Positions 7,944 through 8,773 of a stretch of DNA of 8,773 nucleotides are shown piece by piece. A program made the position numbers and the translations under genes. This stretch comes from a virus (taxonomy: Duplodnaviria > Heunggongvirae > Uroviricota > Caudoviricetes), in IMG/VR virus record IMGVR_UViG_2671180433_000013; one strand, given 5' to 3'. How positions within the stretch are numbered: position 1 is the first letter of the stretch; the number at the start of each line of letters is the position of its first letter. Under the pieces are notes generated by a model that worked only from the letters and a program-made list of their open reading frames with translations, was not told the DNA's origin and made no database searches.

Positions 7944-8726
7944 ATGGGTAAAGGTGGCGGCAGGGCGCACACGCCTCGAGAGGCGAAGGATAATCTCAAA
8001 TCCACGCAGATGATGAGTGTGATTGATGCGATTGGTGAGGGACCGATAGAAGGCCCGGTGAAAGGCCTGCAGAGTATCCTGGTGAACAAAACCCCGCTGA
8101 CGGACACGGACGGCAATCCTGTGATACACGGTGTGACCGCGGTCTGGCGCGCCGGGGAGCAGGAGCAGACACCACCGGAAGGCTTTGAGTCCTCCGGAGC
8201 TGAAACCGGACTGGGCGTGGAAGTGACGAAGGCAAAGCCGGTAACGCGCACCATTACATCCGCGAACATTGACCGCCTGCGGGTCACCTTCGGGGTGCAG
8301 TCACTGTTGGAGACCACCTCAAAGGGCGACCGTAATCCTTCCTCTGTCCGGATTCTGATTCAGTTACAGCGTAATGGCCGCTGGGTGACGGAAAAGGACG
8401 TCACCATTAACGGCAAGACCACCTCACAGTTCCTGGCCTCGGTGATTCTGGAGAATCTGCCTCCCCGGCCCTTTAACATCCGGATGGTCAGGGAGACGGC
8501 GGACAGCACCCCGGACCAGCTGCAGAATAAGACGCTGTGGTCGTCATACACCGAAATCATCGATGTGAAACAGTGCTACCCGAACACGGCCATTGTGGGG
8601 CTGCAGGTGGATGCGGAGCAGTTCGGTGGCCAGCAGATGACGGTGAACTACCATATCCGCGGTCGCATCATCCGTAAGCGTCGTCTCAGCACCGTCTGGC
8701 AGATCCTGAAATTCCTGAGAGAATAG
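7944..8726 (+). CDS. J: Host-specificity / tail-tip protein J, N-terminal 260 codons ending at an in-frame TAG (apparently truncated or disrupted)
   Basis: [39 protein letters not shown]...[39 protein letters not shown]...NYHIRGRI is collinear with the lambda gpJ N-terminus. Full-length J is about 1100 aa, but here the frame ends at TAG 8724..8726 after a non-J-like tail ([18 protein letters not shown]). No other frame continues J-like sequence. Confidence 0.7.
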
Positions 8727-8773
8727 TGGACACCAAATATGGTGGACGCTATCCATGAAATCATTAACCGCAG

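Follow-up and report, generated by a model that had tools for sequence, protein, structure and literature searches.

The tail-tip gene J of a sodC-carrying lambdoid prophage runs into the left end of ISEc22 in draft Escherichia coli genomes

The gpJ protein of phage lambda nucleates the assembly of the tail tip, and its receptor-binding domain lies in the C-terminal part. Structures of this protein of 1132 aa (PDB 8iyk and 8k35) were retrieved by sequence search. Disruption of the late genes of lambdoid prophages by insertion sequences is already well documented, and the element, the gene and the type of event considered here are all known. Such insertions are an ordinary route by which prophages become defective. 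ISEc8 of the IS66 family, for example, disrupts nu1 in Sp4, a prophage of E. coli O157 Sakai (PMC2669165). That case resembles the present one in that an IS66-family element knocks out a lambdoid prophage gene for late functions or morphogenesis and adds to the 'defective prophage pool' (PMC2669165), whereas the IS, the gene and the strain are different. ISEc22 is a member of the IS66 family with a length of 2454 bp (PMC5001619). The terminal repeats of this family start with GTAAGCG (PMC12888890).

ISEc22 was found in J of a lambdoid prophage in the O111:H11 strains 88.0502 and 88-19539 (NZ_CP077567.1 and NZ_CP077491.1). This prophage carries sodC, has an HK97-type tape measure and the gene order M-L-K-I-sodC-J, and shares 96% nucleotide identity with the DNA analysed here. 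The first 100 nt of its ISEc22 copy are identical to those in the present locus and the orientation is alike. The site is independent. There, ISEc22 follows about 2445 nt of J, the duplication GATTTTTT is in place and the two parts of the gene are visible, whereas the present site is at nt 730, with the flank CATCATCC and only the 5' part in view. Another copy, cbrC::ISEc22, is widespread in E. coli chromosomes, e.g. NZ_CP023834.1. Element and end sequence are the same as here, whereas the target gene is cbrC and the flank is CATCATAC. This copy served as the reference for the IS boundaries, the length of 2455 bp and the 8-bp duplication.

The DNA under study, referred to as the window, comprised 8,773 nt and is the entire record CYBE01000084.1 of the E. 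coli draft GCA_001286205.1. The following features were located in it.

3006..4736, + strand: tape-measure gene, C-terminal part (Pfam)
4729-5070, + strand: gene M (Pfam)
5070-5768, + strand: gene L (Pfam)
5774-6517, + strand: gene K (Pfam)
6514-7095, + strand: gene I (Pfam)
7283..7810, - strand: sodC, Cu/Zn superoxide dismutase, an intact cargo gene between I and J (Pfam Sod_Cu, E 8.5e-32)
7944..8673, + strand: 5' fragment of the lambdoid tail-tip/host-specificity gene J, codons 1-243 and base 1 of codon 244 (nucleotide identity, Pfam, alignment with 8iyk)
7944..8726, + strand: hybrid ORF of 260 codons and TAG 8724..8726 (translation)
8666..8673, + strand: target octamer CATCATCC directly left of the IS, predicted to be repeated at the right end if transposition was simple
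8673..8726, + strand: IS-encoded tail of the hybrid ORF (translation); codon 244 spans the junction (C|GT, Arg) and is followed by 16 residues and the TAG
8674..8773, + strand: left end of ISEc22 with the terminal inverted repeat, which opens with GTAAGCGT, then the leader and 19 nt from the start of tnpA (100/100 identity to L003 20533-20632)
8755..8773, + strand: start of the IS66-type accessory gene tnpA, cut by the record end (ATG at 8755, by position in L003 and L001)

Gene J and the left end of ISEc22

Translation of the ORF gave 260 codons before the stop, as had been reported in a preliminary description of this DNA. Residues 1-243 aligned without gaps and end to end with residues 1-243 of lambda gpJ (8iyk_J; phmmer, E 2.4e-125), to which they are highly similar. 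The fragment also matched Pfam PF24801 FNIII-A_GpJ with an E value of 5.9e-41, above the family cut-off. At the DNA level, full-length genes annotated as gpJ showed 96-98% identity to it, and they were present in thousands of E. coli genomes as well as in Stx and lambdoid phages. Identity to gpJ of E. coli E110019 was 98.2% in nucleotides, with the alignment ending at 8673, and identity to J of the O111:H11 prophage was 96.3% in amino acids. Neither internal stops nor frameshifts were detected in 7944..8673. In every one of the thousands of matches the homology reached its limit at 8671-8673. Collinearity with lambda gpJ had been described up to ...NYHIRGRI. It was found as stated, and the limit was shifted to a slightly later point, as ...RGRII and the first base of codon 244 still belong to J.

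The gene closes a tail module with the order tape measure-M-L-K-I-J, judged from the Pfam matches of the upstream ORFs and from annotated relatives, and this order is shared with lambda. Members of the gpJ/TipJ family are about 1130-1160 aa long and include central and C-terminal domains; the full-length relatives of the window's J comprise 1158-1159 aa. Only 243 of the 260 codons are J, and the product differs from lambda gpJ by the loss of about 890-915 C-terminal residues, among them the receptor-binding C-terminus. The J of the window is a gene fragment and not a functional gpJ member.

The junction was located with a three-way alignment of the window, the intact J of E110019 and the cbrC copy of ISEc22. 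The window follows J through ...CGCATCATCC (8673), which ends with CATCATCC. From 8674 to the last base, 8773, it follows the ISEc22 end GTAAGCGTCG... The site is thereby placed between nt 730 and 731 of J (8673|8674), and the IS is oriented like J. At this point the intact protein reads ...RGRII-QVPSNYDP, and the DNA reads ...RGRIIQVPSNYDP... in every other J examined, fragment or full-length. Translation that reads through into the left end of ISEc22 accounts for the 17 non-J residues and for the TAG.

All 100 nt of 8674..8773 were identical to the ISEc22 copy of the O111:H11 contig L003 (blastn, E 3e-48), in which the transposase is annotated 'IS66-like element ISEc22 family'; the comparison with the window spans these 100 nt, and chance does not account for such a match. 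Positions 8674-8681 read GTAAGCGT, which carries the GTAAGCG start of IS66 and ISEc22 terminal repeats, with the inverted ACGCTTAC at the far end of the reference copies. The reference copies in L001 (cbrC) and L003 carry tnpA, tnpB and the ISEc22-family transposase. They are bounded by GTAAGCGT...ACGCTTAC, are 2454-2455 bp long and have terminal 8 bp that are perfectly inverted. In both, the annotated start of tnpA is 81 nt past the IS end (20614 vs 20533 in L003 and 3590 vs 3509 in L001). The last 108 bases of the window were matched at 98-100% in 1780 of the 5426 complete E. coli genomes and in 1330 plasmids, which came from several enterobacterial genera. These matches always adjoin a gene for an 'IS66-like element accessory protein TnpA' and occur in unrelated contexts, e.g. 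cbrC and HNH genes. Carrier genomes hold ISEc22 in a median of 2 and up to 12 places. The sequence after 8673 is the left end of ISEc22, a member of the IS66 family. An Rfam scan of the window gave no match.

The earlier reading that nothing J-like resumes downstream thus stands, with 8674..8773 non-J in any frame. Its suggestion to look for an IS terminus near 8660 led to the ISEc22 end at 8674. It had left open a deletion or recombination breakpoint, an insertion or a contig mis-join; the insertion was supported by this terminus, and the mis-join found no support, with the junction exactly at the terminus and four independent draft assemblies in agreement.

Assembly structure of the record

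Five contigs encode the exact 260-aa product, and its database entries (CTT83281.1 and three others) bear the name 'host specificity protein [Escherichia coli]'. Three further assemblies, GCA_001286445.1, GCA_001285865.1 and GCA_001284885.1, share the base-identical junction; their contigs break off after 84, 126 and 84 nt of IS sequence, respectively, compared with 100 nt in the window. With odd k values of 85, 101 and 127, the depths of the four contigs correspond to k-1. It is normal for short-read contigs to extend into a multicopy element by the length of one k-mer and go no further. The depths would accordingly be those of de Bruijn contigs halting in a repeat. The record ends 100 nt inside the IS because the multicopy ISEc22 was impassable to a short-read assembler. 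No mention of the assembly accessions was found in the literature. Other J fragments of about 250 aa in the same protein cluster were considered as further insertion cases and rejected. All continue with QVPSNYDP... and are contig-edge partials.

Further upstream, the ORFs 22-1443, 1409-3034 and 2964-4736 resemble a frameshifted and partly triplicated tape-measure gene. The joints between them consist of N, a single one at position 1430 and a run of 21 at 2985-3005. All three pieces can be placed on one normal gene of 3243 nt, where they overlap, namely at L003 12126-13554, 12001-13554 and 13140 onward. Pieces 1-1429 and 1431-2984 end at the same gene coordinate, and 3006-3420 repeats the final 415 nt of both. 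They are 96.4% alike and are two different prophage alleles. The sister contig L006 passes the second joint without duplication. Three contigs were scaffolded into the window, and the tape-measure 'triplication' (1-3420) is an artefact of this step. N gaps within a record can mimic gene duplications, and an early stop at the end of a draft contig often points to an IS junction.

Probable transposition into J and competing explanations

It is very probable that J was interrupted by an ISEc22 copy that transposed into the lambdoid prophage at nt 730 and that the record ends inside this repeat. ISEc22 (~2454 bp, tnpA-tnpB-transposase) would have entered J between nt 730 and 731 in the orientation of the gene. 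Translation of J would then run 17 codons into the IS up to the IS-borne TAG and yield the 260-aa product with gpJ residues 1-243 only. The IS would be complete, and beyond it a second CATCATCC would lead into the ~915 codons of J that remain. A simple insertion predicts the IS right end ...GCTGCACGCTTAC, then CATCATCC, then AGGTGCCGTCAAACTATGAC... The right junction would be composed of the IS end ...GGTTCTTGCTGCACGCTTAC, followed by CATCATCC and AGGTGCCGTCAAAC... (J nt 731 onward).

The cbrC copy (L001) has a perfect 8-bp duplication, CATCATAC, at 3501-3508 and 5964-5971, and the duplication GATTTTTT of the O111:H11 J copy (L003) is also a perfect one of 8 bp. By analogy, a duplication of CATCATCC would be expected for the window copy. 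The cbrC flank CATCATAC and the J flank CATCATCC are identical in 7 of 8 positions. A target-site preference based on this likeness was rejected, as about 15 independent left flanks from other genera gave no consensus. The resemblance is probably a coincidence.

The left junction was absent from all 5426 complete E. coli genomes searched, and a left-junction 25-mer gave 0 matches in the species-representative genome set. When the 5426 complete E. coli genomes were searched with a synthetic 128-mer of the predicted right junction, no match spanned it. The C-terminal 917 aa of the E110019 J (residues 242-1158), used as a protein query, matched only contig-edge partial J from unrelated assemblies, none with an IS-derived leader, and no fragment from the CY* assemblies. 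The matches H101 and H102, which appeared to cover the whole window, were rejected; they carry ISEc22 at a different J site, and their match pieces had been joined in the search output.

These searches bear on the question of whether J was split or truncated. With recombination between two ISEc22 copies or a deletion adjacent to the element, the distal part of J, possibly together with lom and tail-fibre genes, would have been lost or moved, and J would be truncated rather than split. Such an IS-associated deletion or rearrangement is rather unlikely, although several observations agree with it. Neither a right junction nor a matching 3' J fragment was recovered, the multicopy ISEc22 offers a substrate for IS-IS recombination, and big deletions occur in the tail region of other strains, e.g. 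the tape-measure-to-J fusion of contig L010. However, the missed right junction is explained by the scope of the searches, outside which lay the other contigs of the four drafts, and both complete ISEc22 copies examined, one of them in J, are simple insertions that preserve an intact 8-bp duplication and the two halves of the gene. On precedent, a simple insertion is the more likely, since the O111:H11 J copy keeps its 8-bp duplication and both halves of J.

A chimera or mis-join of J and IS by the assembler is suggested by the scaffolding artefacts elsewhere in the record, i.e. the N runs and the duplicated tape-measure ends. It is nevertheless highly improbable at 8673|8674. This junction contains no N and falls exactly where the IS terminal repeat begins. 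Beyond it, intact J and ISEc22 have no sequence in common by which a k-mer assembler might have been led astray, and the four assemblies share the identical junction at different break depths. A sequencing error, a frameshift or a naturally short J variant has nothing in its favour but the premature stop itself. Its probability is close to negligible, as all 100 downstream nucleotides are IS and not shifted J, and as the other J all retain the uninterrupted sequence and their full-length relatives reach the family length. Transposition of ISEc22 into J is the preferred explanation.

Two contigs from unrelated projects, L009 and L011 (GCA_022949195.1 and GCA_012324325.1), start exactly at J codon 244 (CAGGTA...), at most 1 base from the junction. 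Such starts could arise where an assembly branches between the J alleles of a genome with several prophages, or from same-site insertions. That codon 243/244 is a recurrent breakpoint with independent same-site insertions in L009 and L011, or that the undecayed 243-aa fragment is kept because it interferes with the building of tails by superinfecting or co-resident lambdoid phages, was considered very unlikely.

Tail genes, sodC and related prophages

The tail module at 3006..7095 follows the lambda order, and its genes are full length. Compared gene by gene with L003, the tail genes showed 94-100% amino acid identity and no internal stops. The sodC gene had 99.4% amino acid identity and no stops, and its position and annotation are shared with the E110019 and O111:H11 prophages. 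The lack of decay in the J fragment and the neighbouring tail genes suggests that the insertion is fairly recent and not ancient, and that the IS is the relevant lesion in the region. The prophage is probably tail-defective, in line with the defective prophage proposed in the preliminary description, as the product holds 243 of about 1158 gpJ residues and the role of gpJ is established in lambda. Functional tails could still be made if J came in trans from another prophage of the genome. In annotation terms, the 260-aa protein deposited for these isolates is the product of an IS-truncated pseudogene. In prophage scoring, the prophage would be rated as probably tail-defective, still with its sodC cargo.

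The O111:H11 prophage carries a second IS66-family element, ISCro1, between the N- and C-terminal ORFs of the tail fibre (L003 24840-29131 and the same region of L004). Its portal gene is annotated as frameshifted. Together with ISEc22 in J, these findings indicate that the late region of this prophage has multiple independent lesions.

Exact ISEc22 left ends were also detected on contigs L012, L014 and L019, which are labelled Subdoligranulum MAG, Bacillus sp. and Bacillota MAG, respectively. The flank in L019 is the flank of E. coli and Shigella copies (L015 and L028). This suggests enterobacterial contamination or mis-binning of the three records.

In an unrelated strain (GCA_907166335.1, CAJRFN010000081.1), a deletion of about 5.8 kb fuses the tape-measure gene to J at L010 2941-3037. 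The fusion point in the tape-measure gene corresponds to L003 12888 and that in J lies about 97 nt before the window junction. The deletion removes M, L, K, I, sodC and the 5' end of J.
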